Positions 9,926 through 63,268 of a DNA stretch of 64,000 bases are shown piece after piece (position 1 is the first letter of the stretch; the number at the start of each line of letters is the position of its first letter). This DNA is from Pinirhizobacter sp. (GTDB lineage Bacteria > Pseudomonadota > Gammaproteobacteria > Xanthomonadales > Rhodanobacteraceae): positions 33,662 to 97,661 of the forward strand of contig NZ_DASYDG010000033.1 of the NCBI RefSeq assembly GCF_036499745.1, read 5' to 3'. The notes under the pieces are model-generated. The model worked only from the letters and a program-made list of their open reading frames with translations. It did no database searches and was not told the DNA's origin. Both the position numbers and the translations under genes were made by a program.

Positions 9926-10040
9926 CCGTTGCACCGCGCCGGTTTCACGCTTCGCCGGTTTATAGTCGGGCCCGACCTCTTGCTAAGGAAACGGGCCCAT
10001 CGCCACCTGGCGCACCATCCTCGTCGTTGCCTGCCTGTCG

Positions 10041-10907
10041 TTGACGGGCAACGCCTCCGCCCAAGCCATCCGTGTCGGCTCCAAGGCTGACAACGAGGGC
10101 GCCGTGCTCGGCCAGTTGATCGTGCAGGTGCTGCGCCATGCCGGCATGAGCGTGGACGACCGTACGCAGCTGGGGCCCACCGCCATCGTGCGCCGCGCCC
10201 TTCTGGCGGGCGAACTGGACATCTATCCCGAATACACCGGCAATGCTGCGTTCTTCTTCCACCGGGAAGACGACCCGGCATTTCGCGATGCATCGGCCGC
10301 GCATGCGCTCGCCGCGACGCTCGACCTCAGGGCCAACGCACTGGTGTGGATGAAGGCAGCGCCGGCGGACAACCATTGGGGCATCGCCGTCCCGCGCGCC
10401 GTGGCAGAGCGGGAGCACGTGCGCACACTGAACGACTTCGCACGCTGGGTGAACAGCGGTGCGCGGGTGAAACTGGCAGGTTCCGCGGAGTTCGTCGACA
10501 GCGCCGCGGCATTGCCTGCATTCGAGCAGGCCTACGGCTTCACCATGCAAGGCTCCCAATTGCTGGTGCTGGCCGGCGGCGATACCTCGGTGACGATCAA
10601 GGCCGCGGCCGAAGGCACCTCGGGCGTAAACGCCAGCATGGTGTACCTGACCGACGGCGCCCTGGCGGTGACGGGCCTGGTGGCACTGGAGGATCCCCGC
10701 CATGTCGAACTGGTGTACCAGGCGGCGCCGGTGGCACGCGCGGCGTTGTTGAAAAAGTATCCTGCCATTCCCGCCCTGCTCGATCCGGTTTTCGGACGCC
10801 TGGATGTCGACACGCTGCGCCGGTTGAATGCGCGCACCCAGGTGGATGGCACCGATGCCTCGGTGGTGGCGCACGACTTCCTGGAAGGTATCCATGCGCT
10901 GGACTGA
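10041..10907 (+). CDS. yehZ: Osmoprotectant-type ABC transporter substrate-binding protein (YehZ/OsmF-like)
   Basis: IRVGSKADNEG, ELDIYPEYTGN, APADNHWGIAV, LEDPRHVELVYQAAPV. The true start is probably upstream (see findings). Confidence 0.85.
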   Translation: MTGNASAQAIRVGSKADNEGAVLGQLIVQVLRHAGMSVDDRTQLGPTAIVRRALLAGELDIYPEYTGNAAFFFHREDDPAFRDASAAHALAATLDLRANALVWMKAAPADNHWGIAVPRAVAEREHVRTLNDFARWVNSGARVKLAGSAEFVDSAAALPAFEQAYGFTMQGSQLLVLAGGDTSVTIKAAAEGTSGVNASMVYLTDGALAVTGLVALEDPRHVELVYQAAPVARAALLKKYPAIPALLDPVFGRLDVDTLRRLNARTQVDGTDASVVAHDFLEGIHALD

Positions 10908-12006
10908 GCGCACCTGGCCGCTCGCCCTGTTGGCGCTGGGCGTGACCGGCCTGCTGGCGTCGGTGGCATTGAACGCGGTCGTGCTGGCGCCGAACCGGTT
11001 GCTTACGGGGCACGGTTACGTGTCCATCGCCCTACCCGCCCTGCGATGGCTGCCCCTGGCGTGGCTGGTGGTACTTGCGACGGCACGCATGAGGGGCATG
11101 GCGGGCCTGGTCGTTGCCATGTTGTTGTTGCCGGCCCTGCTGGTGGCCACGGGGTTCGCCGCCAACGGCTTGCTTGCCACGGCGGGCGGACACGCGCGGG
11201 TGCAGTTGGGCTCGGGCTTCTGGTGCATGGCCACCTCGGCGGTGTTGCTGGTGGCTGATCGCCAGCGCGAGATCCGGATGCGGGCTTCCCTGCGCCTTGC
11301 ATGCTGGATAGGCCTTGCCATGCTGGTGGTGGCGATGACTGCGGCGGGCATGTTCGACAGGCTGTCCATCGTGCAGGAATTCGTCCTGCAGCGAGCGCGT
11401 TTCCTCACCGCCGTGGGGCAGCATCTGTTACTGGCTTTCTCCGCCACCGCTGCCGCGGTGGTCCTGGGCGCGCCGCTGGCCGTGGCGGTAGCGCAGCGCC
11501 GACGCGGCCGCGGTATCTCCCTGGCCGTGTTGAACCTGGTGCAGACCATTCCGTCGATGGCGCTGTTCGCCCTGCTGGTGGCGCCCCTGGCGTGGCTGGG
11601 CGTGGGCGGTACCGGCAATGCACCGGCCCTGGTGGCGCTCACCGCCTATGCCTTGCTGCCTGTCATGCGCTACACGCTGGCGGGCCTGGCTACGGCTCCA
11701 TCTTCAGCCCTGGACGCGGCGCGCGGCCTGGGCCTGCAACCGTGGCAGGTGCTTACCCGGGTGCAGTTGCCGCTGGGGCTGCCGGTATTCGCCGCGGGCC
11801 TGCGCATCGTGCTGGTGCAGTCGATCGGCCTGGCCGCGGTGGCGGCGCTGGTGGGTGCCGGTGGCCTGGGGCGCTTCGTGTTCCTGGGTCTTGGCCAGGG
11901 TGCCAACGACCTTGTCATGCTGGGGACGCTGGCCATCATTGCGCTGGCCCTTGCCGCCGATGGCGCCTGCCGCGCTCTGGAACGATGGATGGAGCCGCAC
12001 GCATGA
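10894..12006 (+). CDS. yehY: ABC transporter permease (YehY-like)
   Basis: Multi-TM; LNLVQTIPSMALF, EAA-like loop LDAARGLGL, LGQGANDLVMLG. Overlaps the SBP stop. Confidence 0.85.
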   Translation: MRWTERTWPLALLALGVTGLLASVALNAVVLAPNRLLTGHGYVSIALPALRWLPLAWLVVLATARMRGMAGLVVAMLLLPALLVATGFAANGLLATAGGHARVQLGSGFWCMATSAVLLVADRQREIRMRASLRLACWIGLAMLVVAMTAAGMFDRLSIVQEFVLQRARFLTAVGQHLLLAFSATAAAVVLGAPLAVAVAQRRRGRGISLAVLNLVQTIPSMALFALLVAPLAWLGVGGTGNAPALVALTAYALLPVMRYTLAGLATAPSSALDAARGLGLQPWQVLTRVQLPLGLPVFAAGLRIVLVQSIGLAAVAALVGAGGLGRFVFLGLGQGANDLVMLGTLAIIALALAADGACRALERWMEPHA

Positions 12007-12926
12007 TCGAATTTTCTAATGTCAGTAAACGATTCGGGCAGGACGAGGCGGTCGATGGCGTATCGCTGAGCATCGCTTCGGGCGAGTTGTTCGTGATGGT
12101 CGGCCCTTCAGGTTCGGGCAAGTCCACCTTGCTGCGCATGATCAATCGCCTTGTCGAGCCCGACGAAGGCTCGGTGTGCATCGACGGGCAGGATGTACGC
12201 AATACCCCCGTGACTGAACTTCGCCGCGGCATCGGTTATGCCATCCAGTCGGTCGGCCTGTTTCCGCACTGGTCGGTGGCAAGGAACATCGGCACCGTTC
12301 CCCGCCTCCTGGGCTGGAAGGAAGATCGCATCGCATCGCGCGTTGCGGAATTGATGGCGATGGTGGAGCTCGATGCCAGCATTGCCAAGCGCCTGCCGGC
12401 AGAGCTCTCCGGCGGCCAGCAACAACGCGTGGGTGTGGCGCGGGCGATGGCGGCGCAACCGATCATCGTGCTGATGGACGAGCCCTTCGGCGCGCTCGAT
12501 CCGGTCACGCGCGAAAAACTCCAGCATGCCTTCCGCCGCATCCACGCCGATATCGGCACCACCGTGGTGTTCGTCACCCACGACATGGATGAAGCGCTGC
12601 AATTGGGTGACCGCATTGCCTTCATCGATGGCGGGCATGTCCGTCAGTGCGGCACGCCGCTGGAACTGCTGCTGCACCCGGCCGACGATGTCGTCCGCGG
12701 TTTCGTCGGTGGCACCTCGGCGGGTTTGCGCCTGCTGTCGGTGCGCAAGGTTCGCGATGTCATGGCGCCAGGCAACGTGGCTGATGGAACGCCGTCGATC
12801 CATGCCGAGGCCGATCTTCGCCAGGCGCTGTCGATGATGGTCGACCGGGGCTTGCGTGCGCTTCGCGTCGATGGCGCCGGGGACCAGGTGATCAGCCTGG
12901 ACGGCCTGCTGGTGCCGCCGTCATGA
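12003..12926 (+). CDS. yehX: ABC transporter ATP-binding protein (YehX/OpuCA-like)
   Basis: Walker A GPSGSGKS, signature LSGGQQQRVG, Walker B LMDEPFGALD, VTHD. ATGA overlap. Confidence 0.92.
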   Translation: MIEFSNVSKRFGQDEAVDGVSLSIASGELFVMVGPSGSGKSTLLRMINRLVEPDEGSVCIDGQDVRNTPVTELRRGIGYAIQSVGLFPHWSVARNIGTVPRLLGWKEDRIASRVAELMAMVELDASIAKRLPAELSGGQQQRVGVARAMAAQPIIVLMDEPFGALDPVTREKLQHAFRRIHADIGTTVVFVTHDMDEALQLGDRIAFIDGGHVRQCGTPLELLLHPADDVVRGFVGGTSAGLRLLSVRKVRDVMAPGNVADGTPSIHAEADLRQALSMMVDRGLRALRVDGAGDQVISLDGLLVPPS

Positions 12927-13645
12927 ACTGGCGCATCGCCGTGCCGGCGCTCACCCTGGCGGCGCTGCTGCTTTGGCTGCCGCATTCGGCACCTGCCTTC
13001 CACGCGATGTTCCCTTCGGTGGGAAAACCGGTGTACCTGCGCACTGGGTTCGGGCAACTGTTGGCCATCCATGCCGGCATCGTGTTGCTGGCGAGCGCCA
13101 CGGCGGTGCTCGTGGGGCTGGCCGTGGCCGCACTGGTGACGCGCCCCTTCGCACGCAGCCTGCTGCCGACGGCCAACGCCGTGGCCGTGGTAGGCCAGAC
13201 CATCCCGCCGGTGGCCGTGCTGGTGTTGTCCGTCCCCTTGCTCGGTTTCGGTGCGCCGCCTACCCTGTTGGCGCTTACCGTGTACGGGGTGCTGCCGGTG
13301 CTTGGCCAGGCCATCGCGGGCCTGCGCAGCGTCCCGCCGGAGGCGATCGCCGCCGCTGACGGCATGGGCTACGGGCCCTGGCGGCGCCTGAAGGATGCCG
13401 AGTTGCCCCTGGCGGTACCGGCGATCATGTCCGGCGTGCGGCTATCGGTGATCGTGGCCGTGGGCACGGCCACGATCGGGTCCACCGTGGGCGCCACCAC
13501 CCTTGGCTCGCCCATCATCGAAGGGTTGGTCGGCAACAACCCCGCGTACGTCGTACAGGGCGCGCTGTTGGTGGCTGCCCTGGCGATGCTGGCCGATGGC
13601 CTGCTCGAATGGGTGGAACGGCGCGTTACTTCGCGTGGTCGCTAA
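12923..13645 (+). CDS. yehW: ABC transporter permease (YehW-like)
   Basis: GQTIPPVAVL, AIAAADGMGY, ELPLAVPAIMSGVR. ATGA overlap. Confidence 0.85.
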   Translation: MNWRIAVPALTLAALLLWLPHSAPAFHAMFPSVGKPVYLRTGFGQLLAIHAGIVLLASATAVLVGLAVAALVTRPFARSLLPTANAVAVVGQTIPPVAVLVLSVPLLGFGAPPTLLALTVYGVLPVLGQAIAGLRSVPPEAIAAADGMGYGPWRRLKDAELPLAVPAIMSGVRLSVIVAVGTATIGSTVGATTLGSPIIEGLVGNNPAYVVQGALLVAALAMLADGLLEWVERRVTSRGR

Positions 13646-14501
13646 GCCAGTCGACCACGGTTGAGGTCATCGCCAGGCGCTTGTCCGAATAAGGATGGTC
13701 GGTGTCGAAGTGGCGGGTCTGGACGTCCGCGTCCCCGGCCTTGCGCAGTGCATCGGCCAAAGCCTCCGCCGAGGGCTGCAGGCCGTCGTTGGCGGTGACC
13801 AGCAGGGCCGGGCGGTCTTTGAGCATCGGCACCCACGACTGGAATTTCCAGGTGGCGGCATTGGCCTGGGCTTCGGCGACCAGTCCATCCACGCTGCAGC
13901 CCGCCAGCGGAAGGATGTCTTCCTCCCATTCCTTGCGCTCAGCGCCCTTGACCATGTCCGCGGTGACGCTGCCCATGTCGGCGCCGGAAATCATCACCAG
14001 GCCCTTGACGTCTTTCGCATGGCCCACGGCCCAGCCCGCGGCAAAGCCGCCCATGCTATGACCGGCGACGAAGATCCGGCTGCGGTCGATGCGATAGTCC
14101 TTCGCATGGGCCGGGTCCTGCACGAACGCCACGGCGGCATCTGCATCCTCCAGCACGTGGGCGAACGAGAACGTGCCCGGACTGCCCCATGACCCGCGGT
14201 AATGCAGCGTCAGTACATTGAATCCGGCACGGCGGACGGCTTGCGCCAGGTCGAGGTTTTGTTCATTGCCGGGAAAACCATGGAAAAGCACCAGGGTGGG
14301 ATGCGGCCCTACGCCCGGGGCGAGGTAAAACACCGCATTCATCTTCGAACCATGGCTGTCGATCTGGGCGACCTGCATGCTGGCCGGGTTTGCCTTGTCA
14401 GCCGGTGGGTCGGCGGTGACTACGCCGGGGTGGGGATAGGGAGCGGCGGAAACGCCGAAAACCAGCAATGACAGGACAAGGCAGGGCCATATCGCGCGCA
14501 T
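13626..14501 (-). CDS. Secreted alpha/beta hydrolase
   Basis: Signal peptide MRAIWPCLVLSLLVFGVSA; HGFPG; nucleophile GHSMG; C-terminal D-H (TDHPYS). Confidence 0.88.
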   Translation of the reverse strand: MRAIWPCLVLSLLVFGVSAAPYPHPGVVTADPPADKANPASMQVAQIDSHGSKMNAVFYLAPGVGPHPTLVLFHGFPGNEQNLDLAQAVRRAGFNVLTLHYRGSWGSPGTFSFAHVLEDADAAVAFVQDPAHAKDYRIDRSRIFVAGHSMGGFAAGWAVGHAKDVKGLVMISGADMGSVTADMVKGAERKEWEEDILPLAGCSVDGLVAEAQANAATWKFQSWVPMLKDRPALLVTANDGLQPSAEALADALRKAGDADVQTRHFDTDHPYSDKRLAMTSTVVDWLSDHAK

Positions 14502-14588
14502 CGGGGACATTCCTGTTGCTGGAGGTGTCCAAGCGTGGAACCTGCCGAATTTGAGCGCAAGGTGAACCGGTGTATTTCGCGGATGTTG

Positions 14589-14614
14589 TGCTATAAATGA
14601 TTTGTATGACAAAT
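14589..14614 (+). promoter_or_regulatory. Extended -10 promoter (TG-C-TATAAA) with adjacent FadR/DgoR-type operator ATTTGT-ATG-ACAAAT
   Basis: TG 14589-90 and TATAAA 14592-97; perfect 6-3-6 inverted repeat at 14600-14614 resembling TTGT..ACAA FadR-family boxes. Confidence 0.65.
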
Positions 14615-14632
14615 GACCCTGAGGGGGTCCAT

Positions 14633-15343
14633 GTGGCACGAACGACGGGACCGCGAAACCTGCATGGCCAGGTGGTCCAGGAACTGGGGCAGATGATCGT
14701 CGGCGGCAACCTTGCGCCGGGCGAGGCGTTGCCGCGTGAAGAAGCCCTGGCCACCCGCATGGCGGTCAGCCGCACGGTACTACGCGAAGCGCTGAAAGTG
14801 TTGGCTACCAAGGGCTTGATCGAAACCCGCCAGAAGACCGGCATGCGCGTGCGCGAGGTGCGCTTCTGGAACCAGCTCGACGCCGATGTCCTGGCCTGGC
14901 GTTGCGCGGCGATGCCCACCGACGACTTCGTCGACAAACTGGTGGAGATGCGCGAGATCGTCGAACCCGCCGCCGCGGCCGCCGCCGCGCGCCGTCGCGA
15001 CGACATCCAGTTGGCGGAGGTCGCCGCCGCCTACGAGGCGATGGACGCGGCCATGGACCTGGACGCCTGGGCCGAAGCCGACGTTCGCTTCCACGAGGCG
15101 GTGCTGCGCGCCACCAACAATGAATTGCTCGGCTCGCTGTTCTCGGTGATCCAGACCGCGCTTGCCACGTATTTCCTGATGTCCGCCCGTACCACCGCCA
15201 ACTTCCGTTATTCCCTCCCCCAGCACCATGCCGTGTACGACGCCATCCGCCGCCGCCGGCCCAACGCCGCGGCCGACGCGATGCGCGGCCTGATCAGCGA
15301 TTCGCGCGACACCCTGAAAACGCGCCGCGCGGTAAAACCATGA
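14633..15343 (+). CDS. dgoR: FadR/GntR-family regulator of the galactonate operon
   Basis: wHTH LPREEALATRMAVSRTVLREALKVL and FCD domain; first gene of the dgo cluster. GTG 14633 follows GAGGGGG. Confidence 0.85.
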   Translation: MARTTGPRNLHGQVVQELGQMIVGGNLAPGEALPREEALATRMAVSRTVLREALKVLATKGLIETRQKTGMRVREVRFWNQLDADVLAWRCAAMPTDDFVDKLVEMREIVEPAAAAAAARRRDDIQLAEVAAAYEAMDAAMDLDAWAEADVRFHEAVLRATNNELLGSLFSVIQTALATYFLMSARTTANFRYSLPQHHAVYDAIRRRRPNAAADAMRGLISDSRDTLKTRRAVKP

Positions 15344-16272
15344 ACCACCTGATCGCCCTGGATTGGGGCACCTCCAGCTTCCGCGCCTACCTGCTCGATG
15401 CCGCCGGTTCCATCGTGGAAACCCGCTCCAGGCCCTGGGGCATCCGCCAGTTGCCCGACGGTGGCTTCGGTGGCGCCTTCGCCGCCATGGTGGCCGGCTG
15501 GCCCGACTGCCCGGTGATCGCCGCCGGCATGGTGGGCAGCCGGAACGGCTGGCAGGAAGTGCCCTACCTTGATATTCCCGCAGGCGTCGATGAGCTGGCC
15601 GCCGCGCTGGTGCCGGTCGCCGCCCCTGGCGGACGCGTAGTGCACCTGGTGCCAGGCCTGCACAACAGCCGCGGACCCGACGTGATGCGAGGTGAGGAAA
15701 CCCAGCTGGTCGGCGCGCTGGCGCTGCGGCCGCCGCCCCAGGGTGAAGCCACCGTGGTGCTGCCGGGCACCCACAGCAAATGGGTGCGGGTGAAGGAAGG
15801 CGTGGTCACCGATTTCGTCACCACCATGACAGGCGAACTCTTCGCCCTGCTGTCCCGCCATTCGATCCTGGCGGTGGAGATCAAGCCCGATGCACCCCTG
15901 GATGTCGATGCCTTCAGTCGCGGCGTGCGCACCGCACGCGCCAGTGGCGCTGCCGGAGGCGTGTCGCGGCTGTTCTCGACGCGGGCGTTGATGCTCGATG
16001 GCACGCTCGATGCCTCAAGCGTCCCGGATTACCTCTCGGGCCTGCTGATCGGCGAGGAAATCCGTTCCACCCTGGCCGATGGCCGCATGGACTGCACGTT
16101 GCCGCTGCGCCTGGTGGGTGATGCCGCCCTGGGCGCGCGCTACCGCATGGCCGCCAGCGATTTTTCCCTCACTGTTTCACCTGCCGTGGAGGACACCGCC
16201 GCCCACGGGCTGTGGCTGATCGCCCGGCGTGCCCATTTGCACGAACGAACCATCCACGGAGTTTCCCCATGA
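15340..16272 (+). CDS. dgoK: 2-dehydro-3-deoxygalactonokinase
   Basis: IALDWGTSSFRAY, AGMVGSRNGWQE, DVMRGEETQLVG, LPGTHSKW, TGELF. Confidence 0.95.
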   Translation: MNHLIALDWGTSSFRAYLLDAAGSIVETRSRPWGIRQLPDGGFGGAFAAMVAGWPDCPVIAAGMVGSRNGWQEVPYLDIPAGVDELAAALVPVAAPGGRVVHLVPGLHNSRGPDVMRGEETQLVGALALRPPPQGEATVVLPGTHSKWVRVKEGVVTDFVTTMTGELFALLSRHSILAVEIKPDAPLDVDAFSRGVRTARASGAAGGVSRLFSTRALMLDGTLDASSVPDYLSGLLIGEEIRSTLADGRMDCTLPLRLVGDAALGARYRMAASDFSLTVSPAVEDTAAHGLWLIARRAHLHERTIHGVSP

Positions 16273-16907
16273 TCGGCGCCTGGCTTGGCCCCCTTCCGCT
16301 CGTCGCCATCCTGCGTGGCATCACCCCAGGCGAGGCCGCCGACACCGGCGATGTCCTGGTCGATGCGGGCTTCCGCATCCTTGAGGTACCCCTCAATTCC
16401 CCCGACCCTTTGCGCAGCATCAGCATCATGTCCGAACGCTTCGGCGACCGTGCGCTGGTGGGTGCCGGCACCGTGCTGTCGCCCGCGCGTGTCGAAGAAG
16501 TCGCTGCCGCCGGCGGCAAGATCATCGTCATGCCGCATGCGGATGTGGCGGTGATCCGCGCGGCCAAAGCCGCGGGGCTTTACTGCCTGCCGGGTGTGTC
16601 CACCACCACCGAGGCCTTCGCGGCGCTCGACGCCGGCGCCGATGCGCTGAAGATTTTCCCGGCCGAGCTGATCGGCCCGCATGTACTCAAGGCGTGGCGA
16701 GCCGTGCTGCCGAAGGATCTGGCGTTGCTGCCGGTCGGCGGCATCGAGCCCGGCAACATGGCCGGGTTCGTCGCGGCCGGGGCGAACGGTTTTGGCATTG
16801 GCGGGGCGTTGTACGCACCAGGCCGGCCGATCAGCGACACGAAAGCCCGCGCGCAGGCTTTCGCACAGGCCTGGGCTGCATTGGCCGCCAAGGGAGCCGG
16901 CGCATGA
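16269..16907 (+). CDS. dgoA: 2-dehydro-3-deoxy-6-phosphogalactonate aldolase
   Basis: [39 protein letters not shown]. Confidence 0.93.
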
Positions 16908-24553: not shown

Positions 24554-26029
24554 CTACTCAGCTGATCCGCTTGATACCGGAAGCGCGGCGGCGACCTCGC
24601 GAAACGACAGCAACGCAGCTTCCAGGTGATCAATGATCTCCTGAGCCAAAACATCTGGGGGTGGCAGATCGTCGAGGTTGTCCAGGCTGTCATCCTTCAG
24701 CCAGAAGATGTCCAGGCTCGCTTTATCGCGCGCTACCAGCGTCTTGTAGTTGAAGTACTTGAAGCGCTCGGTTTCCTTGCGCTTATGCCGGTTAGTCGGG
24801 TTGTAACAGGCGATGAAGTCCTGCAGGTCTTCCGCCTTCAGCGTCTTCGTCTTCAGGGTGAAATGCTTATTCGTACGAAGGTCGTAGATCCACACGCCTT
24901 TGGTCTGGACCTTGCCAACCTTGGGTTTTGCATCGAAGAACAGTACGTTCGCCTTCACACCCTGCGCGTAGAAAATGCCTGTGGGCAGCCGCAGCAGGGT
25001 ATGCACGTCACACGTTTCCAGTAGCTTGCGGCGAATCTTCTCGCCAGCGCCGCCCTCGAAAAGCACGTTGTCGGGAAGCACCACGGCCGCCTGGCCGGTT
25101 GTTTTGAGCATCGACACGATGTGCTGCAGGAAGTTGAGCTGCTTGTTCGAGGTGGTCTGCCAGAAGTCCTGGCGCTCATAGGTCAGCGCGTCGCGGTCTT
25201 CCTGGCCGTCCTCGTTGGTGATGGTCATGCTGCTCTTCTTGCCGAAGGGCGGGTTGGCCAGCACGTAATCGAACTTTTGCTTCGACTCTGAGATCAGGGC
25301 ATCGGAACGATCCACCGTCGGCTCGCCATCGAGGTCGCCGACGTTGTGCAGAAATAGATTCATCAGGCACAAGCGACGAGTCGCGGCGACAATCTCGTTT
25401 CCGAAGAACGCTTTGTGGCGTAAGAACTCCTTCTTTCTTTTGTCGAGTTGACTCCCGGGCCGCGTGAGCCATTCGTAGGCACCGAGAAAGAAACCGCCGG
25501 TGCCGCAGGCCGGGTCGGCAATGGTCTTCATCGGTTCCGGCTGCACGCACTCGACCATGGCCTGGATCAGTACGCGCGGAGTAAAGTATTGGCCGGCACC
25601 GCTCTTGGTGTCCTCGGCGTTCTTATGCAGCAGGCCTTCGTACAGATCGCCCTTGGTGTCGGCATCGAGGCTGATCCAGTCTTCGGCATCGATCATTTGC
25701 ACCAGCCGCGCGAGTTTAGCCGGGTCTTGAATCTTGTTCTGAGCCTTGAAGAAGATCGCGCCGAGCATGCCAGGTTCCTCGCCCAGCCGGTGCAACACTT
25801 TCAGATAGTGCGCTTCCAACGGCTCGCCGACCTTGCGTCGCAGGCTCGCCCAATCGCAGCTCTTGGGAACGTGGGTCTCGCGGTTATAAGGGGGCAGCGA
25901 ATACTCGTGCGCCATCTTCAGGAACAGCAGGTAGGTCAGCTGTTCTAGATAGTCGCCATAGCCGACGCCGTCATCGCGAAGGGTGTGACAGAAGTTCCAG
26001 ATTTTCTGGACAAGGGCGGTGCTGTTCAT
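24554..26029 (-). CDS. hsdM: Type I restriction-modification methyltransferase subunit M (m6A)
   Basis: GDYLEQLTYLLFLKM, GAGQYFTPR, DPACGTGGF, catalytic NPPF, NKQLNFLQHI, VLPDNVLFEGG. Confidence 0.95.
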   Translation of the reverse strand: MNSTALVQKIWNFCHTLRDDGVGYGDYLEQLTYLLFLKMAHEYSLPPYNRETHVPKSCDWASLRRKVGEPLEAHYLKVLHRLGEEPGMLGAIFFKAQNKIQDPAKLARLVQMIDAEDWISLDADTKGDLYEGLLHKNAEDTKSGAGQYFTPRVLIQAMVECVQPEPMKTIADPACGTGGFFLGAYEWLTRPGSQLDKRKKEFLRHKAFFGNEIVAATRRLCLMNLFLHNVGDLDGEPTVDRSDALISESKQKFDYVLANPPFGKKSSMTITNEDGQEDRDALTYERQDFWQTTSNKQLNFLQHIVSMLKTTGQAAVVLPDNVLFEGGAGEKIRRKLLETCDVHTLLRLPTGIFYAQGVKANVLFFDAKPKVGKVQTKGVWIYDLRTNKHFTLKTKTLKAEDLQDFIACYNPTNRHKRKETERFKYFNYKTLVARDKASLDIFWLKDDSLDNLDDLPPPDVLAQEIIDHLEAALLSFREVAAALPVSSGSAE

Positions 26030-26031
26030 CG

Positions 26032-27072
26032 TTATGGCTTGCCCATATTCTTGGAGGATGTCAGCCGTGTGGCTTGCGCCTGCAACTGAGTCAATTCTTC
26101 GTCGGCCTCGTGCTCGGAGGCCTGCAACTCGATGGCGCGGCGACGGCCATCAAAGTCGGCGTAGCGCTCGCCGATAGTGGCTTCCATCCGTTCCCGCGAG
26201 ATCCGCCCGGAACCGATGAGCAATGAGCGTTCGTTAAAGCTGAGGAAACGATCTGTTTGCGCGACCCAGTCGATCATGCGGGTCTCGATGCGTCGCATCG
26301 CGCGGTCCTCGGCAAAATCCAGGAACATGGTGACCAACCGATCGAGCTGGTCGAGTTCTTCGTCATCAAGGTAATTTTTGGATATAACTGCATCGGACTT
26401 GCGGACTTGATCTCCGGCCCAGGTAGTCAACGCCATGTTGGCTGCGTCAGGATTTGCACGCTCCACGATCAGCTCTGCAGCGGTTCGGCCGGTAACCGCA
26501 AACACTAGTTTGTTTTGGATGGTGGCGAAGAAGGTTTTGGCCGTGGGCACAGTGCCGTCGTAGTCGCTGCTACTGGTTTTGAATAGGTCACGTAACCTTT
26601 GGTAGAAGCGCTTTTCCGAACTACGGATATCGCGTATGCGGCGCAGCAATTCATCGAAGTAGTCGGCGCGCTCGGCATCCTTCAAGCGCTGGTCGTTCAG
26701 CACGAAGCCCTTAACCAAATATTCGGCAAGCGTGGAGCCCGCCCAGCGCCGAAACTGGCTGCCACGTGGAGAGCGCACGCGGAAACCGACCGCCAGGATC
26801 ATGTCCAACCGATAAAGCTGAACAGGTCGACTAACGCGCCGGCTACCCTCGATTTGAACTGTCAAGGAATCCTTGACAGTTGCCTCTGTTGACAACTCGC
26901 CCTCTTCGAGAATGTTGCGGATGTGCAGGCTCACGTTCTGCTTGGTGGTGTCGAAGAGGTCGGTCATCTCACCCTGGGTGAGCCAGACCGTGCCGCCGGC
27001 GGCGCGTAGGTGGACGTCGGTTCGTCCGTCCTCAGTGCGGTAGAGGATCAGTTCGCCATTGCTCTCGTTCAT
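26032..27072 (-). CDS. rhuM: RhuM family protein
   Basis: ILYRTEDG, TVWLTQGEMTDLF, YRLDMILAVGFRVRSPRGSQFRRWA, YLVKGFVLNDQRLK, IRDIRSSEKRFY. Confidence 0.9.
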   Translation of the reverse strand: MNESNGELILYRTEDGRTDVHLRAAGGTVWLTQGEMTDLFDTTKQNVSLHIRNILEEGELSTEATVKDSLTVQIEGSRRVSRPVQLYRLDMILAVGFRVRSPRGSQFRRWAGSTLAEYLVKGFVLNDQRLKDAERADYFDELLRRIRDIRSSEKRFYQRLRDLFKTSSSDYDGTVPTAKTFFATIQNKLVFAVTGRTAAELIVERANPDAANMALTTWAGDQVRKSDAVISKNYLDDEELDQLDRLVTMFLDFAEDRAMRRIETRMIDWVAQTDRFLSFNERSLLIGSGRISRERMEATIGERYADFDGRRRAIELQASEHEADEELTQLQAQATRLTSSKNMGKP

Positions 27073-28607
27073 GCGCGCTCCTTCTTCTGGCGAGCATTCT
27101 TTGTTTTTGGTTTCTCGGCGACCGCGACACGCGCTCCGCGGATCCGATCCAGCAGTACGCTGGCAGGTTCGTCACTTGGTTCCTGTGGCACTAGTTGACC
27201 GGCGAAGGCGGCCCTTAGGATGTTCTTACGTTGGGCGGAAGCCTGCCTGATTCCAAGCGCTGCGGCCTCGTCTTGATCACGGACACTGGATAGCGAATCT
27301 GACAGTCTTTCGACCAGCAGGAGTTGCTCGTGCATCGGCGGAATTGGTACCGGAAGACGCTCAAGGATCTCGAGATTTATGTTTTTCTGGGCCGTTGCGG
27401 GAGCCTCATCCTCTAGCTTCTGCTGCGCTGTGCGGATGTAGTACTCGACGTATTCCACCGACACTGCATCACTCGCTGGAAGAAAGCCTACGACGCTATC
27501 GGGAAAGCAGGCCTCCACCGCAAGCAATGCCGTCTTACCGATGTTTGCGGCGATCGTTATACAGAGGGTCTTCGTTGGCCACAACCGACTTTGCGCGAGC
27601 CCGGCCTCGCTATAGGTGATGGATGCTTTGCGAACGAAGGTGTCCGAATCCCGAATGTCCCCAGTTTGCACAAAGGGGTAAGGGCCGCCGTACAAATGCG
27701 GGGCGTTTCTTGGCCGATGCTTGGAACGACCGCGGTCAAGCCATCCGATTTGGGACAGGGTGGCCCATACCCATCCTTCTGGAAGCTCGGAAAAGTCGGT
27801 GGTGTCGAGAGATATCGGCTCAGGGTATTTATTCCGCCAATCTCCCGGAGGAGTCTTGCCTTGTTCAATAAACTTAGCAAGTTGTTTTGCCTCCCAGTGT
27901 GCGCGACGATCGGTGAGAATGCTTTGCAGCAGGTCGGTGCCGATTTCCCTCGGTCTTCTGTTCGCGATGCGGGCCATACGCCAGTCGGCGGTCAGTGCGC
28001 CTTCCATCGCCGCCTTCAGTAGTGATTGGCGATACTGCTCAAGCTTACGCTGCAACACCTTCAACTCAGTCACGCCAGCATCGAGGTCGGAGAACAGCTC
28101 TTCGAGCTTCTTGACGATTCGGTATTGCTCGCTCTTAGGCGGCAACATGAATTTGTAGTTGGAGATGTCTCTAGGACGAACTGCTGGATAAAGCGCCCCT
28201 TGAACAAGGCTCGACATTGTGTCGATGAAGTGGTCCGTCTGAACGAGGTAGTAAAGGAACTTCGGCTCGACCCAACGTGTACGCAGAACATGAAATCCGG
28301 TTGAAGCAACGAGTTGCGATTCCGAGCAAGGGACCATTGCCACTGCGTTCAAGTTTGGTCGCGTCATCGACACCAATACGTCGCCGGGAGCAACGATCTG
28401 CCTAGCTCGGCTAGGAGCCTCGTCGAGCTCGAGGAGCCTCTGTTCGCGCAAGGCTTTTGCCTCACGGTCAATGCTGCCGATGTCCAGATAGACAAAAGCC
28501 CTAGTCGGCCCAGTTTGCGCAACATGGCCCTCAACGACCTCGGCGAGCGTGGTCAGTGCGTAGCCCGGTGCAATCAACTCAGCAGACCGGTCGTGCTTCG
28601 AAATCAA
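27069..28607 (-). CDS. hsdS: Type I RM specificity subunit S
   Basis: Two TRDs separated by conserved helices (LPPKSEQYRIVKKLEELFSDLD; PIPPMHEQ; RKNILRAAFAGQLVPQEPSDEPASVLL). TTG start overlapping the hsdR stop. Confidence 0.93.
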   Translation of the reverse strand: MISKHDRSAELIAPGYALTTLAEVVEGHVAQTGPTRAFVYLDIGSIDREAKALREQRLLELDEAPSRARQIVAPGDVLVSMTRPNLNAVAMVPCSESQLVASTGFHVLRTRWVEPKFLYYLVQTDHFIDTMSSLVQGALYPAVRPRDISNYKFMLPPKSEQYRIVKKLEELFSDLDAGVTELKVLQRKLEQYRQSLLKAAMEGALTADWRMARIANRRPREIGTDLLQSILTDRRAHWEAKQLAKFIEQGKTPPGDWRNKYPEPISLDTTDFSELPEGWVWATLSQIGWLDRGRSKHRPRNAPHLYGGPYPFVQTGDIRDSDTFVRKASITYSEAGLAQSRLWPTKTLCITIAANIGKTALLAVEACFPDSVVGFLPASDAVSVEYVEYYIRTAQQKLEDEAPATAQKNINLEILERLPVPIPPMHEQLLLVERLSDSLSSVRDQDEAAALGIRQASAQRKNILRAAFAGQLVPQEPSDEPASVLLDRIRGARVAVAEKPKTKNARQKKERA

Positions 28608-31381
28608 GCGACTAACTCCTCGTTCATTTCTGTCAGCAGTTCATCGAACTGCTCGCCAAATACTTGCCATACTTTCTGCAGTCCACCCTTGTCGGCTAGC
28701 TGCGCATAGTCGAAATCTTCGCGACTGATCGAACAACTAGATGCGACGTGATCCTTCATCAAACGTAGCCACTCGGTTTGTTCCAGAGTAAACGCCGTGG
28801 CGCGCTGCGCATTATGGCGGAATATCCACTCCTGGAAACGCTTGTCGACACTGTCAGCGAACGGGCGTAGTTCTTCGTCGAGGCCCAATGCGAAGCGCAC
28901 GAGTGCGATCAGGTCGGTGAGCTGGCGGCGGATTTCGGCGCCTTTGACCTTGCCGGCCTGGACACGTGCGTAGGCCGACCACAGCCGCTCAGTGGTGAGC
29001 ATCAGCGGTGGCCGAGACAGTACGTCGTGCAGATCCTCAATCATGGCGAAGGTGAGCAGCCGACGCCGGTAGGGCTGCTGGTAGAAGAAATCCAGCGCGG
29101 TGATCTCGTCGCGGTGTACGCGCAAATAATCGGCGAATACCTGAATGGTGGCCGTGGCCTGCGCCTCTGCCTGTGCGCTGAATCCGGTCGAGACCACTTG
29201 GTCAATGTTGATGTGATCGATGAGCTGTTCGTGCTCGCGGCGGGCGGAGTCGATCAGATCGCGCAGCTTGGGATCGTCGAACGGTTGACAAGCCGCGGCA
29301 ACTCGGCGACGACGTGCGGCGTCCAATTCGTCGGCCGCGAGGACGTCCTCGCTGGACGTGATGCCGGCGGCATTGGCGGTATCCAGCGCATCGGCCACGA
29401 TCCGATCGGGATCCAGCGCTATAATCAGGTTACGCGCGAGATCATTGAGGCTGCGGCCATCTGCAACCTGTTTGATCCGGGTCAAAGCCTTATCGTCTAG
29501 CTGCTTGGCCAATCGCACCAGACGGTTGCCGAGCGTGAGTACCGTGTCGTCATCGCGGCTACCAATCGCAACACCCTTGAGCAGATTGTTCAGCGAGACG
29601 GCAGGCATTTTTTCCAAGGGTCGGCTTTCGGTTTTCAGCGATTTTTCCACCCCGACGGCGTCGATCAAAACGAAGTGTGTCTTAGCGCTGTCGGCGCTAC
29701 TGCTGACCTTCTTCAACGATTCCGCATCAAGGCTTCGCACGCCGCGGCCTTTCATCTGCTCGTAATAGCCCTTACTGCGCACATCGCGCATGAACAGCAG
29801 CACTTCCAGTGGCTTCACATCTGTACCGGTAGCAATCATGTCGACCGTGACGGCGATACGCGGGTGGTACTCGTTGCGAAAGTTGGACAGGATGCTGTCC
29901 GGGTCTTCCTCGGCCTTGTAGGTCACCTTCTTGCAGAATGCATTGCCTTCATCGTAGACCTCACGCACGGTGCGAATAATGTCATCCGCGTGGCTGTCGG
30001 TTTTGGCGAAGATAAGGGTCTTGGGCACTTCAGCGCGATTAGGATAAATGCGAGTTTCCACCGCCGTTTTCATCGCTTGTATCACCTGGCGGATCTGGCT
30101 GGGGTTGACCACCGATCGATCGAGGTCAGTTCTGCTGTAGGTCGTGTCTTCCTCGGTCTGAGCCCAGCGCTTCTTGCGAGTCTGACGGTCGCGGTGATCG
30201 ATCCATTCTTTGGCCTTCAGCTCGGCACCGGCGCGGGTGATCTCAGTTTCGATCTCGTAGACGTCATAGCCCACGTTGACGCCGTCAACCACCGACTGTT
30301 CGTAGCTGTACTCAGCAACCACATTTTCGTTGAAGAAACCGTAGGTACGCTTGTCTGGGGTGGCAGTGAGGCCAATCAGGAAAGCATCGAAGTAGTCCAG
30401 CACCTGCTTCCATAGGTTGTAAATGCTCCGATGGCACTCATCGATGATGATGAAGTCGAAGGTCTCAATCGGCACTGACGGGTTGTAACGGACCAGCTTG
30501 GCCTGTTTGTCCAACGCCCCTAATTCCGCGGTAGATATGTCCTCGGCCGATTCGTCGATCGGCTCGCCGGAGAGGATGGAGTACATGCGCTGGATGGTGC
30601 TGATGCAAACCTGCCCATGAGGATCGATGTTGCTGGAGGACAGTCGCTGCACGTTGTAGAGCTCAGTGAACTTCCGGCCGTCATCCGGCGGCGTGTAGGC
30701 CATGAACTCCTGATGCGCCTGCTTGCCAAGGTTTCTAGTGTCGACCAAGAAAAGAATGCGCTTGGCTCCGCCGAACTTGAGTAGACGGTATACAGACGTG
30801 ATGGCGGTGAACGTCTTACCCGCGCCCGTGGCCATATGGACCAGTGCGCGGGGTTTGTTCATAGCCAGCGATTTCTCCAGGCCGGTGACGGCACTGACCT
30901 GGCAGTCACGCAAGTTCCGCTCCGGAAGGGGCGGCATCTGGGTCAACCGACGGCGCAGTGTTTCTGGCAGTGCGGCCCAATCCGCTAGAGTCTGGGGCTG
31001 AAAGAAGTAAAACAGTTCGCGGGATCGTGGCACTGGGTCTGCGCCATCGGTAAAGAAAAGGATCTGACCGGTGCTCTCGTAGAGAAAGCGCAGCGGCAAT
31101 CCGCCCTTGTGCCATTTCAGCGAAGCACCGGCATAGCGTTCCGTCTGGGTTTCATGGACGCTCAGGTTCTCGCCGGCCTCGTCGCGCTTGGCTTCGATAA
31201 CTCCCACGGGGTTGCGATCAACGTAGAGAACGTAATCTGCAGGCCCGGTGTCGGTCGGGAACTCGCGCACGGCCACGCCCTGGGCGGCGCCCAGGTTTAG
31301 TTCCTTGATGTCCTGGACAAGCCAGCCCGCTGTTTCCAGCTTCTGATCGATCAGGAGGCGGGCCTTGGCCTCGGGCGTCAT
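28604..31381 (-). CDS. hsdR: Type I restriction endonuclease subunit R (EcoEI/EcoAI-like C-terminus)
   Basis: PEAKARLLID, ADYVL/GVIEAK nuclease motifs, Walker A ATGAGKT, DECH, GLTATP, TVDMIATGTDV, QMKGRG. Confidence 0.95.
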   Translation of the reverse strand: MTPEAKARLLIDQKLETAGWLVQDIKELNLGAAQGVAVREFPTDTGPADYVLYVDRNPVGVIEAKRDEAGENLSVHETQTERYAGASLKWHKGGLPLRFLYESTGQILFFTDGADPVPRSRELFYFFQPQTLADWAALPETLRRRLTQMPPLPERNLRDCQVSAVTGLEKSLAMNKPRALVHMATGAGKTFTAITSVYRLLKFGGAKRILFLVDTRNLGKQAHQEFMAYTPPDDGRKFTELYNVQRLSSSNIDPHGQVCISTIQRMYSILSGEPIDESAEDISTAELGALDKQAKLVRYNPSVPIETFDFIIIDECHRSIYNLWKQVLDYFDAFLIGLTATPDKRTYGFFNENVVAEYSYEQSVVDGVNVGYDVYEIETEITRAGAELKAKEWIDHRDRQTRKKRWAQTEEDTTYSRTDLDRSVVNPSQIRQVIQAMKTAVETRIYPNRAEVPKTLIFAKTDSHADDIIRTVREVYDEGNAFCKKVTYKAEEDPDSILSNFRNEYHPRIAVTVDMIATGTDVKPLEVLLFMRDVRSKGYYEQMKGRGVRSLDAESLKKVSSSADSAKTHFVLIDAVGVEKSLKTESRPLEKMPAVSLNNLLKGVAIGSRDDDTVLTLGNRLVRLAKQLDDKALTRIKQVADGRSLNDLARNLIIALDPDRIVADALDTANAAGITSSEDVLAADELDAARRRRVAAACQPFDDPKLRDLIDSARREHEQLIDHINIDQVVSTGFSAQAEAQATATIQVFADYLRVHRDEITALDFFYQQPYRRRLLTFAMIEDLHDVLSRPPLMLTTERLWSAYARVQAGKVKGAEIRRQLTDLIALVRFALGLDEELRPFADSVDKRFQEWIFRHNAQRATAFTLEQTEWLRLMKDHVASSCSISREDFDYAQLADKGGLQKVWQVFGEQFDELLTEMNEELVA

Positions 31382-31658
31382 GCTTCGGGCCTAGTGGCCC
31401 CTGCCAGCCAACCGTGGGCGGCGACGCATTGATTTGGAGCCACCTCGGAAGCACTCCCGCTCTCGCCGCGAACCATCCTTATCTTTGCCATTGGAGCCCC
31501 CTTGCCAGTTGGGGCCTAATTTACGCACATAGCGGAACGCCGTCCCAGAAGATCTCCAAGGCGAAGATGTCACGGAGTCTCTCGGAAGGCACTTGCTCAA
31601 GATATTCGCATGCAAGTCAACTACTTGCGTGGTATTGCGCTGTAATAACGGCCCGTCG

Positions 31659-31716
31659 TTGACATGCAGGCTTATAACGTATAAATTGGAACTGCAATAT
31701 ACGATTTATACGTTAT
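31659..31716 (+). promoter_or_regulatory. Sigma70 promoter (TTGACA-17-TAAATT) overlapped by a perfect 13-bp inverted repeat
   Basis: TTGACA 31659-64 and TAAATT 31682-87. ATAACGTATAAAT 31674-86 and ATTTATACGTTAT 31704-16, with a 17-bp spacer. Confidence 0.7.
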
Positions 31717-31725
31717 GAGAACGCA

Positions 31726-32226
31726 ATGACAAAAACCGTATCGCTGCCCGACGATGTTTATGCGCAACTTGCCACATTGGCACGCCCCTTCGTTGATCGG
31801 GAGCCTAGCGATGTGATTCGACGCCTTGTCGTACAAGAAATCCTTGCCCTAGGCAATTCTTCTAACGGTAAGGCTAATAGCGCTCATTCGATGAAGCTAG
31901 TGGGTCGTGCACCCAGGGAGCGCGGCGTAACCATCATGCTCGATGGGACTGCCATCGATGCAGATACTGTCCCTGACCTTATTGAGAAAGTAGCCGCCTT
32001 CCTTTTCGATAGTGGCTATTGGTCGAAGCTTCTGGCGATAGCACCGTACAAAACCAGCTCGCGACGCTATCTCTTCTCCAAGACACCGGTTCACCCCAGT
32101 GGTAAGAACTTCTTCTCTGAGCTCAAGTACCGGGATCTCTATTTTGAGGTTCATAAGAATTACGCCACGTCGCTTGAACAGCTCCGTCGCCTTCTCGGAA
32201 AATTGGGAATAAACCTAACTTTCTAA
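31726..32226 (+). CDS. SeqA-like protein (N-terminal ribbon-helix-helix-like segment + SeqA-C-like domain)
   Basis: KTVSLPDDVYAQLA..EPSDVIRRLV resembles the SeqA N-terminus ([24 protein letters not shown]). RRYLFS..LYFEVHKNYATSLEQLRRLLGKLG resembles the SeqA C-domain pattern. Aligned by eye from memory. Confidence 0.7.
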   Translation: MTKTVSLPDDVYAQLATLARPFVDREPSDVIRRLVVQEILALGNSSNGKANSAHSMKLVGRAPRERGVTIMLDGTAIDADTVPDLIEKVAAFLFDSGYWSKLLAIAPYKTSSRRYLFSKTPVHPSGKNFFSELKYRDLYFEVHKNYATSLEQLRRLLGKLGINLTF

Positions 32227-55278: not shown

Positions 55279-56166
55279 ATGCAGACTCCCCGTCGCGTTG
55301 AACACCAGCAAACCGATCGCGGTTACGTGCCGGTGTACGCCACGGGCGTGGTCGACCAGCCCTGGGACAGCTACACCGCCACCGACCACCAGGTGTGGAA
55401 CATCCTTTACGAGCGCCAGCGTGCCCTGTTGCCCGCCTATGCCTGCCCGGAATTCCTCGAGGGTGTGGAACGCTTCGGGCTGGGTGACGGCGGCATCCCG
55501 CGCTTCGACCATTTGAACGAAGTGTTGGCCCAGGCTACCGGCTGGCAGCTGGTGGCCGTGGAAGGCCTGCTGCCCGACGAGGTGTTCTTCGACCACCTGG
55601 CCAACCGGCGATTCCCGGTGAGCTGGTGGATCCGCAAGATGGACCAGCTGGACTACCTCTCCGAGCCGGACCTCTTCCACGACCTCTTCGGCCATGTGCC
55701 GCTGCTGCTGAACCCCGTCTTCGCCGACTACATGCAGGCCTATGGCCGCGGCGGCATGAAGGCCCATGCCATCGGCCCCGAGGCGCTGATGAACCTGACG
55801 CGCCTGTACTGGTACACGGTGGAGTTCGGATTGATCCGCACCGACGCGGGCCTTCGCATCTACGGCGCGGGTATCGTCAGCTCCAAGGGTGAGTCCATCT
55901 ACAGCATCGATTCGCCAGCGCCCAACCGCATCGGCTTCGATCTCGCCCGCGTGATGCAGACACGCTACCGCATCGATACCTACCAGCAGACCTACTTCGT
56001 GATCGATAGCTTCGAGCAGCTGTTCGACGCCACGGGGCCGGACTTTACCCCGCTGTATGCGGAGCTGGCCACGCGTCCCGTGCATGCCGCGGGTGATGTA
56101 CTGGAAGGTGACAAGGTGTACCAGCGTGGTACGCGCGAAGGCTGGGCGACGGGTGGTGACAACTAG
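55279..56166 (+). CDS. phhA: Phenylalanine 4-monooxygenase
   Basis: EPDLFHDLFGHVPLL iron ligands, LYWYTVEFGL, IYGAGIVSS, YRIDTYQQTYFVI. Confidence 0.96.
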   Translation: MQTPRRVEHQQTDRGYVPVYATGVVDQPWDSYTATDHQVWNILYERQRALLPAYACPEFLEGVERFGLGDGGIPRFDHLNEVLAQATGWQLVAVEGLLPDEVFFDHLANRRFPVSWWIRKMDQLDYLSEPDLFHDLFGHVPLLLNPVFADYMQAYGRGGMKAHAIGPEALMNLTRLYWYTVEFGLIRTDAGLRIYGAGIVSSKGESIYSIDSPAPNRIGFDLARVMQTRYRIDTYQQTYFVIDSFEQLFDATGPDFTPLYAELATRPVHAAGDVLEGDKVYQRGTREGWATGGDN

Positions 56167-56204
56167 CCTCTGCTTTCGATCGTGTGGCTGAACAGTGCTG
56201 TCGG

Positions 56205-56612
56205 CTACTTATACGCACCCGCTAGACCCACCTTGTAGCCAGCCTTTTTCAGAAAGGCCGTTGCCTTGCCGTTGACGACCAGCAACGTGATCATATTGAC
56301 CAGCGGGATCAGCAGGAAAACGAACGTGATGATCTTCGCCACGATCGACCACCCGAGTTCGCTGGCAATCTTGAAGATACCGAACAGTCCCAACACGACG
56401 CCCCCTAGGCGAAGTACCCAGGAACCCATAATCATGTAGCCGCCCGCGGTCCGGGAAACGTCCAGGTTGGGCAGCACCACGACCAAAGCGACCGCGGCAA
56501 GATTGATAAGAAAGGCACAGATAACTGCCTTCTGCCCTTTTGAAATTTCGCGTGCGGTCAGATCAGTTTTCTGGTTCTGGTTGAACTTGAGGTCGGTGAA
56601 ATTCGGTTCCAT
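56205..56612 (-). CDS. Small hypothetical membrane protein (135 aa)
   Basis: Three to four hydrophobic segments; PLVNMITLLVVNGKAT..LKKAGYKVG; 35 nt downstream of the autotransporter. Confidence 0.75.
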   Translation of the reverse strand: MEPNFTDLKFNQNQKTDLTAREISKGQKAVICAFLINLAAVALVVVLPNLDVSRTAGGYMIMGSWVLRLGGVVLGLFGIFKIASELGWSIVAKIITFVFLLIPLVNMITLLVVNGKATAFLKKAGYKVGLAGAYK

Positions 56613-56647
56613 GGACTGCCCCTGTCATCGTGACGATGGATTGAACG

Positions 56648-62071: not shown

Positions 62072-62180
62072 GTATTTTCCCCTGTTGTGGGCGCATCTTG
62101 CCGCAAGAATGGGCGGCACGCCTTGTGCGCTGCCGCATGCGATCGAGAAGGACGAGCCGCCCGTGGCTCGCTTCAGGGGC

Positions 62181-62843: not shown

Positions 62844-62954
62844 GGGGACCTCGCGGTGGATTCGCGCCAGTGACGTACGGCTAAGGAGCCTCGTCGCGAT
62901 CCATGAGGGTGCCAGATATCGTGGCAAGTTGGTGTATCGATGGGCCAACGGACC

Positions 62955-63268
62955 GGACGAATGAACCACCCAGGCATGCCCTGCCTGTCAGCCCCGGTCA
63001 CGTCATGGTGTTCATGACCGGTTAGCCAGCCGCGGATCACTCCGACACGACCCGATGGTTCATTCGTCCTGCGCTGACTCGTGCAGGAGCATTCGCCACT
63101 CTGTTTTCACTCAGAGTGGCGGGCGAGCCAGGGTAGAAAACCGCTTATGATCCAATACGGCCGGGCCGAAGCCCGCCTGACCGCCCGCCATAGAAAGACG
63201 GGAAATCACGGGTACCGCAGGAGATGGGCCTGCGATACCCGGGATCATAAAAACGGGTTTCTACACCC
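62955..63268. other. Candidate structured non-coding element (ncRNA or MITE-like)
   Basis: Perfect 14-bp IR at 62955-68/63056-69; 10-bp hairpin at 63094-63121; long imperfect IR 63131-53/63242-68 enclosing further stems. Confidence 0.45.

Follow-up and report, generated by a model that had tools for sequence, protein, structure and literature searches.

We analysed a 64,000-nucleotide (nt) stretch of Pinirhizobacter sp. DNA (assembly GCF_036499745.1, contig NZ_DASYDG010000033.1, positions 33,662 to 97,661), hereafter the window, in which a gene for a 166-amino-acid (aa) protein lies head-to-head with a type I restriction-modification (RM) operon. The protein resembles SeqA, which in E. coli reads hemimethylated DNA and is treated as a replication control confined to Dam-containing gammaproteobacteria. 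Sequence comparison and analogy lead us to propose, with a probability of roughly 0.55, that the gene encodes a mobile, stand-alone, nuclease-free SeqA-like DNA-binding protein that acts as a DNA-state reader of bacterial immunity. That both of its domains are remote homologues of those of SeqA we hold with considerable, though not complete, confidence. The initial annotation had described the protein as a possible SeqA paralogue; the relationship stands in both domains, but the word overstates its closeness, and the protein falls short of the Pfam thresholds for SeqA.

An exhaustive HMMER search found 202 relatives of the protein, and its C-terminal domain (C-domain) alone proved to be a mobile module. 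There are 64 full-length homologues, 163-180 aa long and at most 55% identical, whose alignment falls into three parts: a conserved N-terminal domain (N-domain, residues 1-40), a variable linker and a conserved C-domain (residues 59-166). In the window these are:

31726 to 32226, forward strand: the gene for the SeqA-like protein (P0001), 166 aa, from the open reading frame (ORF) and its translation.
31726 to 31845, forward strand: N-domain, residues 1-40, of ribbon-helix-helix type, SeqA-N-like and acidic, a predicted dimer or oligomer module (AlphaFold2 helices 9-17 and 27-43).
31846 to 31899, forward strand: linker, residues 41-58, unconserved and length-variable in the alignment (predicted local distance difference test score, pLDDT, below 50 for residues 46-63).
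31900 to 32223, forward strand: C-domain, residues 59-166, basic alpha/beta, a predicted DNA reader (from AlphaFold2, intermediate sequences and Foldseek).

About 20 residues are invariant over the full length across distant taxa. In the C-domain, R61, R64, E65, R66, P107, S111, R114, H123, P124, G126, F129, E141, H143, K144 and Y146 are invariant among the homologues; in the wider C-domain superfamily, P107, H123 and F129 are invariant and R114, G126 and E141 nearly so. Standard databases say little about this family. Pfam returns only weak RHH_5 and VapB matches (E 0.14-0.19). Searches of NCBIfam, PADLOC and PHROGs, made with the whole protein only, gave an N-terminal NCBIfam match ('T4SS effector SepA', 22 bits against a cut-off of 110) and no match in PADLOC or PHROGs. 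No Pfam family matches the C-domain recurrently, even with E relaxed to 10, a phmmer search with the protein matches no PDB sequence, and a literature search did not find the C-domain family described. Foldseek with the whole-protein model gave no useful match. The family profile has a single match in the PDB, to 1xrx, which is SeqA-N (E 1.1).

The initial annotation had recognized a SeqA-like pattern at the N terminus, and this likeness exceeds chance. BLASTP aligns residues 3-35 to E. coli SeqA at E 0.001; the E. coli sequence used is exact against PDB entries apart from an engineered mutation. A family alignment of 111 rows compared by hhalign with 26 diverse SeqA N-domains scores 35.2 (96.2% probability, E 2e-9), against 8.0±1.6 for column-shuffled controls, none of which reached it (0/60). 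For diversity, 25 SeqA genes were taken from genomes; the protein search had given only near-identical enterobacterial SeqA. Charge agrees as well: the median isoelectric point (pI) of the N-domain is 4.78 and that of SeqA-N 4.76, and the domain is acidic in 98% of family members. This acidity fits an oligomerization module better than a DNA-binding ribbon-helix-helix domain.

Likeness of the C-domain to SeqA-C, the DNA-binding domain of SeqA, is well supported through intermediate sequences and the predicted fold. The intermediates, which came up while SeqA genes were being collected from genomes, are two nuclease-reader fusions: L022, an HSDR_N-type ORF (G070 contig 1), and L030, a frameshifted Mrr-type gene (G266 contig 389). 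Both are stand-alone nucleases whose C-terminal domain matches SeqA-C, weakly with Pfam SeqA (20.3 and 28.9 bits) and at E 1.5e-6 and 4.4e-10 with a SeqA-C hidden Markov model (HMM) built here. Their readers align by hhalign with SeqA-C (98.6%, score 85.1 against a shuffled null of 11.5±2.3; 0/80) and also with the C-domain superfamily, an alignment of 220 segments (96.0%, 92 columns, score 48.2 against 11.4±2.2; 0/80). A search for further intermediates returned only the query itself. When the N-domain serves as an anchor, full-length comparison with SeqA gives 93% over 128 columns (47.9 against 43.2±1.0; 1/100). The SeqA-C HMM applied to the 166-aa family reaches E 0.24 at best. By their sequence, the L022 and L030 nucleases are candidate methylation-dependent restriction enzymes.

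The fold tells a similar story. AlphaFold models the C-domain alone with pLDDT 88 and a predicted template modelling (pTM) score of 0.81. In a Foldseek search of the PDB with this model, the first 30 matches are redundant 40-column alignments to human immunodeficiency virus reverse transcriptase; the next is 1iu3_C, E. coli SeqA-C on hemimethylated DNA. Over 74 columns it has template modelling (TM) scores of 0.43/0.41, and both its probability (0.20) and its TM score are the highest among the 50 matches listed. The SeqA-C fold had been named before the structure search was made. In BFVD, the best viral fold matches are two giant-virus proteins, A0A1V0SG37 (Hokovirus) and A0A2H4UTP0 (a 'methyltransferase' of Bodo saltans virus), with TM 0.50-0.52 over ~100 columns and E 0.5-1; at the level of predicted structure, they hint that the C-domain fold may also accompany methylases in large DNA viruses.

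Profile alignment through the intermediates lets individual residues be compared. In structure 1LRR, Guarné is said to have identified in 2002 R116, T117, R118, N150 and N152 as the DNA-contact residues of SeqA. The nearly invariant R114 aligns with R118, H143 with N150 (H or N across the superfamily) and N145 with N152 (N, S or D). R116 is not kept, and GATC is therefore unlikely as the target of the 166-aa protein. The register that had been drawn by eye, RRYLFS on RVYFA and LYFEVHKNY on YWVITNTNT followed by a helix, is that of the profile alignments. The pairing of PxHxxG with KPKHVPG turned out to be partly coincidental: neither H139 nor G142 of the E. coli protein is a conserved residue in SeqA proteins generally, and alignment via the intermediates places the segment in a slightly different register. 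The basic character of the domain (median pI 9.45; SeqA-C, 9.16) and the overall length (166 aa; SeqA, 181 aa), with the same order of N-domain, linker and C-domain, agree with SeqA, the length as the initial annotation had said.

Two other identities for the C-domain were tried and rejected. RAMA is set aside by PF18755, which gives no match at E up to 10, and by an hhalign comparison with four RAMA domains (score 10.5, 1 column). A cryptic PD-(D/E)xK or His-Me nuclease is incompatible with position 128, the candidate catalytic aspartate, where N, D, E, P, R, G, A and S all occur; no nuclease family matches, and tandem copies of the domain suggest a binding module.

Measured against the reference set of SeqA from E. 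coli, Vibrio and relatives (PF17206 and PF03925; 1XRX, 1LRR, 1IU3 and 3FMT), the protein has the same build: an N-domain that is acidic and ribbon-helix-helix-like, then a flexible linker, then a C-terminal domain that is basic. Unlike SeqA, it lies below both Pfam thresholds, is accessory and mobile, occurs in a genome without Dam and has relatives fused to defence effectors, and its C-domain starts with a beta-hairpin where SeqA has helices. With the L022 and L030 fusions it shares a homologous reader and a predicted logic in which a reader of DNA state is coupled to an output. That output is a PD-(D/E)xK nuclease in the fusions, which are closer to canonical SeqA-C, whereas the 166-aa protein belongs to a more divergent branch and carries only a predicted oligomerization domain.

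Defence sensors usually pair a single sensing domain with a range of interchangeable effectors, and the C-domain follows this pattern. We surveyed 55 longer relatives that carry the domain. It is fused to the nuclease domains PDDEXK_4 (6 proteins), HSDR_N (6) and NucS_C, to GmrSD and Mrr_N, to TIR (2), SIR2 and HEPN (2), to a Ser/Thr kinase with DUF4268, and to ADP-ribosylglycohydrolase (3). PADLOC matches on these proteins fall on the nuclease or kinase (effector) parts and never on the reader. Restriction-type nucleases are the most frequent partners, and DNA is therefore the likely ligand. As judged from sequence, the range of fusions supports the view that this family has the partners expected of a DNA-modification reader in defence. 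A comparable argument has been made for RAMA, HARE-HTH, Mrr_N and other domains, which are predicted readers of N6-methyladenine (m6A) or otherwise modified DNA in RM systems; the reader role of RAMA was argued from its fusions to many unrelated nuclease folds, and SeqA domains fused to RAMA were noted (Iyer, Zhang and Aravind 2016, PMC4738411). Like RAMA, the C-domain is small and fused to many unrelated nucleases, but the two are not homologous.

Some ~880-aa proteins without other annotation end in tandem repeats of the domain, two or three copies each. Three C-terminal copies are present in P0114, P0166, P0168, P0172, P0174, P0178, P0180 and P0190 (~860-980 aa). The ~500-aa N-terminal half of these P0114-type proteins has no Pfam or PADLOC match, and the family is entirely unannotated. 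Shorter proteins with two or three reader copies are P0132, P0158, P0125 and P0138.

The spacer between the gene and hsdR, the first gene of the divergent operon, contains two features that bear on regulation:

31659 to 31687, forward strand: sigma-70-like candidate promoter of the 166-aa gene, TTGACA-17-TAAATT (10/12 matches in a consensus scan; a consensus match only).
31671 to 31719, no strand: 16-nt inverted repeat, a candidate operator (arms 31671-86 and 31704-19, 94% complementary, 17-nt spacer).

The repeat overlies the -10 element and the 5' leader of the gene, and the centres of its arms are 33 bp apart, about three helical turns. It is a plausible self-target of the protein. Two further symmetries lie in the same spacer: a second dyad, CATGCAAGT / ACTTGCGTG with a 5-nt spacer, at 31603-31631, nearer hsdR; and a 22-nt imperfect inverted repeat (31603-24 / 31655-76) that spans the -35 element of the putative promoter. 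Homologues across distant taxa have their own conserved promoter-plus-repeat cassette. At L004, L005, L008, L010, L011 and L014 it is near-identical and lies ~110 nt upstream of the homologue; in this L004 subgroup, three direct repeats of approximately ATACAnnTATCyAG surround a TTGAC -35 element, and the ribosome-binding site, AAAGGAGG, is strong. A second subgroup (L001, L007, L009, L012 and L015) has a different common cassette, TTGAC...AAACTyAAATACTCT.

Several points weigh against a SeqA-like reader of DNA state. The C-domain link to SeqA-C rests on an intermediate profile of two sequences; compared directly, the two are marginal (hhalign 2%, score 17.1 against a null of 12.1±2.3, reached by 2/60; empirical P ~0.03). 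Column shuffles destroy helix/strand periodicity, so that the significance drawn from them is overstated. At E 2.5, the Foldseek match to 1iu3_C is not significant alone, although SeqA-C is the best distinct match. Pfam SeqA (PF03925) finds nothing in the gene's own genome at E up to 0.001, whereas the E. coli control was found, and SeqA_N (PF17206) misses the ORF, its matches at E up to 10 falling at two other sites in the genome. R116 of SeqA aligns with S112, which is not conserved. TIR, SIR2, HEPN and kinase partners are also typical of small-molecule sensor domains, the acidity of the N-domain speaks against binding of the proposed operator by that domain, and the gene has neither a conserved partner nor a known phenotype.

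Some of these points would suit a ribbon-helix-helix transcription factor of the ordinary kind, carried by a mobile island, with an N-domain that binds the promoter repeats, a C-domain that senses a ligand or a protein instead of DNA methylation and a SeqA likeness that reflects shared ancient folds only. We consider this unlikely. It would accommodate the weak N-terminal matches to RHH_5, VapB and SepA, the operator-like repeat over the promoter, the cassettes that travel with homologues, the partners shared with small-molecule sensors and the single locus beside SMODS plus S_4TM. It sits poorly with an N-domain that is acidic in nearly all members, as in SeqA-N and unlike typical DNA-binding ribbon-helix-helix proteins, and with a C-domain that is basic and linked to the DNA-binding domain of SeqA; the commonest fusion partners (restriction-type nucleases, GmrSD and Mrr_N) also point to DNA.

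Two classes of small regulator were considered and rejected. Controller (C) proteins of RM systems and ribbon-helix-helix regulators or antitoxins (CopG, VapB, ParD) resemble the 166-aa gene in being small, in having an operator-like repeat on their own promoter and, at times, in standing first in an RM operon. C proteins are helix-turn-helix proteins, whereas the 166-aa protein has no helix-turn-helix match in Pfam; an RM neighbour is present at only 4/17 loci, in variable orientation. A type II antitoxin of the ribbon-helix-helix class would differ in its N-domain, which is acidic here, and in lacking the extra ~105-aa reader domain; no toxin ORF adjoins the gene as a partner, and the neighbours of its homologues are not conserved.

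The genes facing the 166-aa gene form the following operon:

28604 to 31381, reverse strand: hsdR, which encodes the type I R subunit and opens the divergent operon (Pfam ResIII, HSDR_N and EcoEI_R_C).
27069 to 28607, reverse strand: hsdS (Pfam Methylase_S in two stretches), with a 4-nt overlap with hsdR.
26032 to 27072, reverse strand: rhuM-family gene inside the hsd operon (Pfam Virulence_RhuM, E 1.4e-100), with a 4-nt overlap with hsdS.
24554 to 26029, reverse strand: hsdM (Pfam N6_Mtase and HsdM_N).

Start and stop codons of consecutive genes overlap or nearly abut, and the divergent spacer measures 344 bp. A translationally coupled rhuM-family gene stands between hsdS and hsdM, and the order hsdR-hsdS-rhuM-hsdM is unusual. 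Between 24 and 33 kb, GC content is 0.56-0.61, compared with ~0.65 in the surroundings; ORF, translation and GC profile all bear out the earlier description of a gene divergent from hsdR in a low-GC island. Inspection of the island ends revealed neither a tRNA nor any obvious repeat flanking them. GC falls again, to 0.575-0.62, over the last part of the window (56000-64000), which may represent another acquired island.

Elsewhere, the company kept by homologues is mixed. Our context survey covered 17 non-redundant annotated loci, including this window, and 59 metagenome loci, many of them short. A type I gene is the immediate neighbour at 4 of the 17: the arrangement is divergent in this window, convergent at L005, and directly upstream of hsdM at L009/L024 and in one JGI contig, the two loci in the last arrangement having gaps of 62-75 bp. 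At one further locus the homologue precedes an SNF2-SNF2-Eco57I system, and at another it has AbiTii on one side and SMODS plus S_4TM on the other. The remaining annotated loci have ParDE, HigBA or PIN-Phd pairs, an integrase, a resolvase, transposases or housekeeping genes alongside. No hsd homologue stands beside the gene at any of the 59 metagenome loci, where the neighbours include EcoRII, GmrSD, HigB, IS91, IS110 and metabolic genes. The closest homologue (L001) is followed, at 8691-16519, by an unannotated 380-aa gene, a pair of SNF2-family helicases and an Eco57I-type protein of 1679 aa; this array resembles a defence system of DISARM or BREX type that includes a methylase.

The link to restriction-modification is thus facultative. 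Because it has its own conserved promoter cassette and heterogeneous neighbours, the gene is a self-contained mobile unit, often landing in defence islands, without an obligate partner. We read its place next to the type I genes as shared residence in a defence island, possibly with cooperation, and not as an obligate partnership.

This bears on the model of the initial annotation, in which methyl marks made by the neighbouring HsdMS are read by the protein, giving it control over hsd expression, restriction alleviation or a backup defence. As stated, that claim finds no support in the survey, and we regard it as rather improbable. The shared 344-bp control region of the gene and the hsdR-first operon is in keeping with it, as are the type I neighbours at 4/17 loci, two of them with the homologue directly upstream of hsdM, and the locus that precedes SNF2 genes and an Eco57I methylase; the island HsdM and one Eco57I-type ORF are, moreover, the only detectable adenine methylases in the assembly. 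Against it, most loci have no methylase nearby, hsd homologues are absent from all 59 metagenome loci and the orientation to hsd varies (divergent, co-directional or convergent). Some adjacency is also to be expected, given how often type I systems occur in defence islands.

That the gene is an orphan antitoxin-like remnant, or a decaying passenger without present function, is very improbable. Several homologues do adjoin toxin-antitoxin pairs (ParDE, HigBA or PIN-Phd), and one frameshifted copy (L016 / L026, 8001-8393) lies amid Transposase_mut and DDE transposase fragments, yet conservation extends over the full length, with ~20 residues invariant across distant taxa, and the promoter cassette is conserved too. 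No toxin adjoins the gene in the window: no ORF fits into the 115 bp between its stop at 32226 and the convergent glnA at 32341.

Distribution and methylase content separate the gene from SeqA proper. Profile searches of its own assembly, which is 94% complete, found no Dam (PF02086), no N6_N4-type and no C5 methylase, extending to the whole assembly the earlier observation that the window lacks dam. The island hsdM is the only PF02384 N6-adenine methylase match, and one other adenine methylase is detectable, on another contig:

G000 contig 38, 68026 to 68682, forward strand: Eco57I-type adenine-methylase domain in a 1205-aa ORF (own-genome search).

The 166-aa gene is absent from both sampled genomes of the same genus and has a match in 1 of 60 relatives. 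Among 185,579 species genomes the family was found at 13 loci, in Gamma- and Deltaproteobacteria, Nitrospira and Acidobacteria-like bins. It is an accessory, mobile gene and not a vertically inherited core gene. Nor is its product a canonical SeqA: the Pfam SeqA models miss it, Dam is missing from the genome, and neither same-genus genome carries the gene. A true orthologue, engaged in origin sequestration and trailing replication forks, would explain the shared two-domain layout and similar length, but for a rare family scattered over unrelated phyla and here confined to a low-GC island it is the remotest of the readings.

The mobile, nuclease-free reader of DNA state that we favour would work as follows. 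Its acidic N-domain, homologous to the SeqA oligomerization domain, would form dimers or higher oligomers, and the flexible linker would join it to a basic C-domain whose fold is a greatly diverged version of the DNA-binding fold of SeqA. If SeqA is a guide, the oligomer would clamp at least two DNA sites, told apart by their state of base modification; the modification read would most likely be N6-methyladenine, within a sequence different from GATC. Its output would most likely be occupancy (the marking, silencing or sequestering of DNA in a given methylation state) or a report of that state to gene expression, rather than cleavage. The protein would probably repress its own promoter through the inverted repeat. 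In other proteins, predicted to be modification-dependent nucleases or abortive-infection effectors, the same reader domain would do the sensing. DNA binding, methylation sensitivity, oligomerization, autoregulation and a defence role are in this sense what we infer from homology, architecture, charge pattern, fusion partners and sporadic distribution.

Both SeqA domains, highly diverged, thus occur in a mobile gene of a bacterium without Dam, and Pfam has no model for the C-domain. Across many lineages, the SeqA-like DNA-binding domain appears as an exchangeable sensor attached to nucleases of restriction type and to abortive-infection effectors. If it reads methylation, it would define a new class of modification-dependent restriction enzymes and potential tools for m6A mapping, provide a route by which foreign or newly replicated DNA is sensed without being cut, and point to a possible evolutionary origin of SeqA. 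More tentatively, and with the odds clearly against it at present, the C-domain could represent a large unrecognized branch of the SeqA fold that reads adenine methylation or hemimethylation across bacterial immunity, with the nuclease-free stand-alone form as one member. Such a branch would arm many type IV-like nucleases as well as TIR, SIR2 and HEPN suicide effectors. The stand-alone form would coat or sequester non-self or half-methylated DNA as SeqA does oriC, serving as a defence or a timing device, and SeqA itself would be a domesticated member of a defence-derived reader family.
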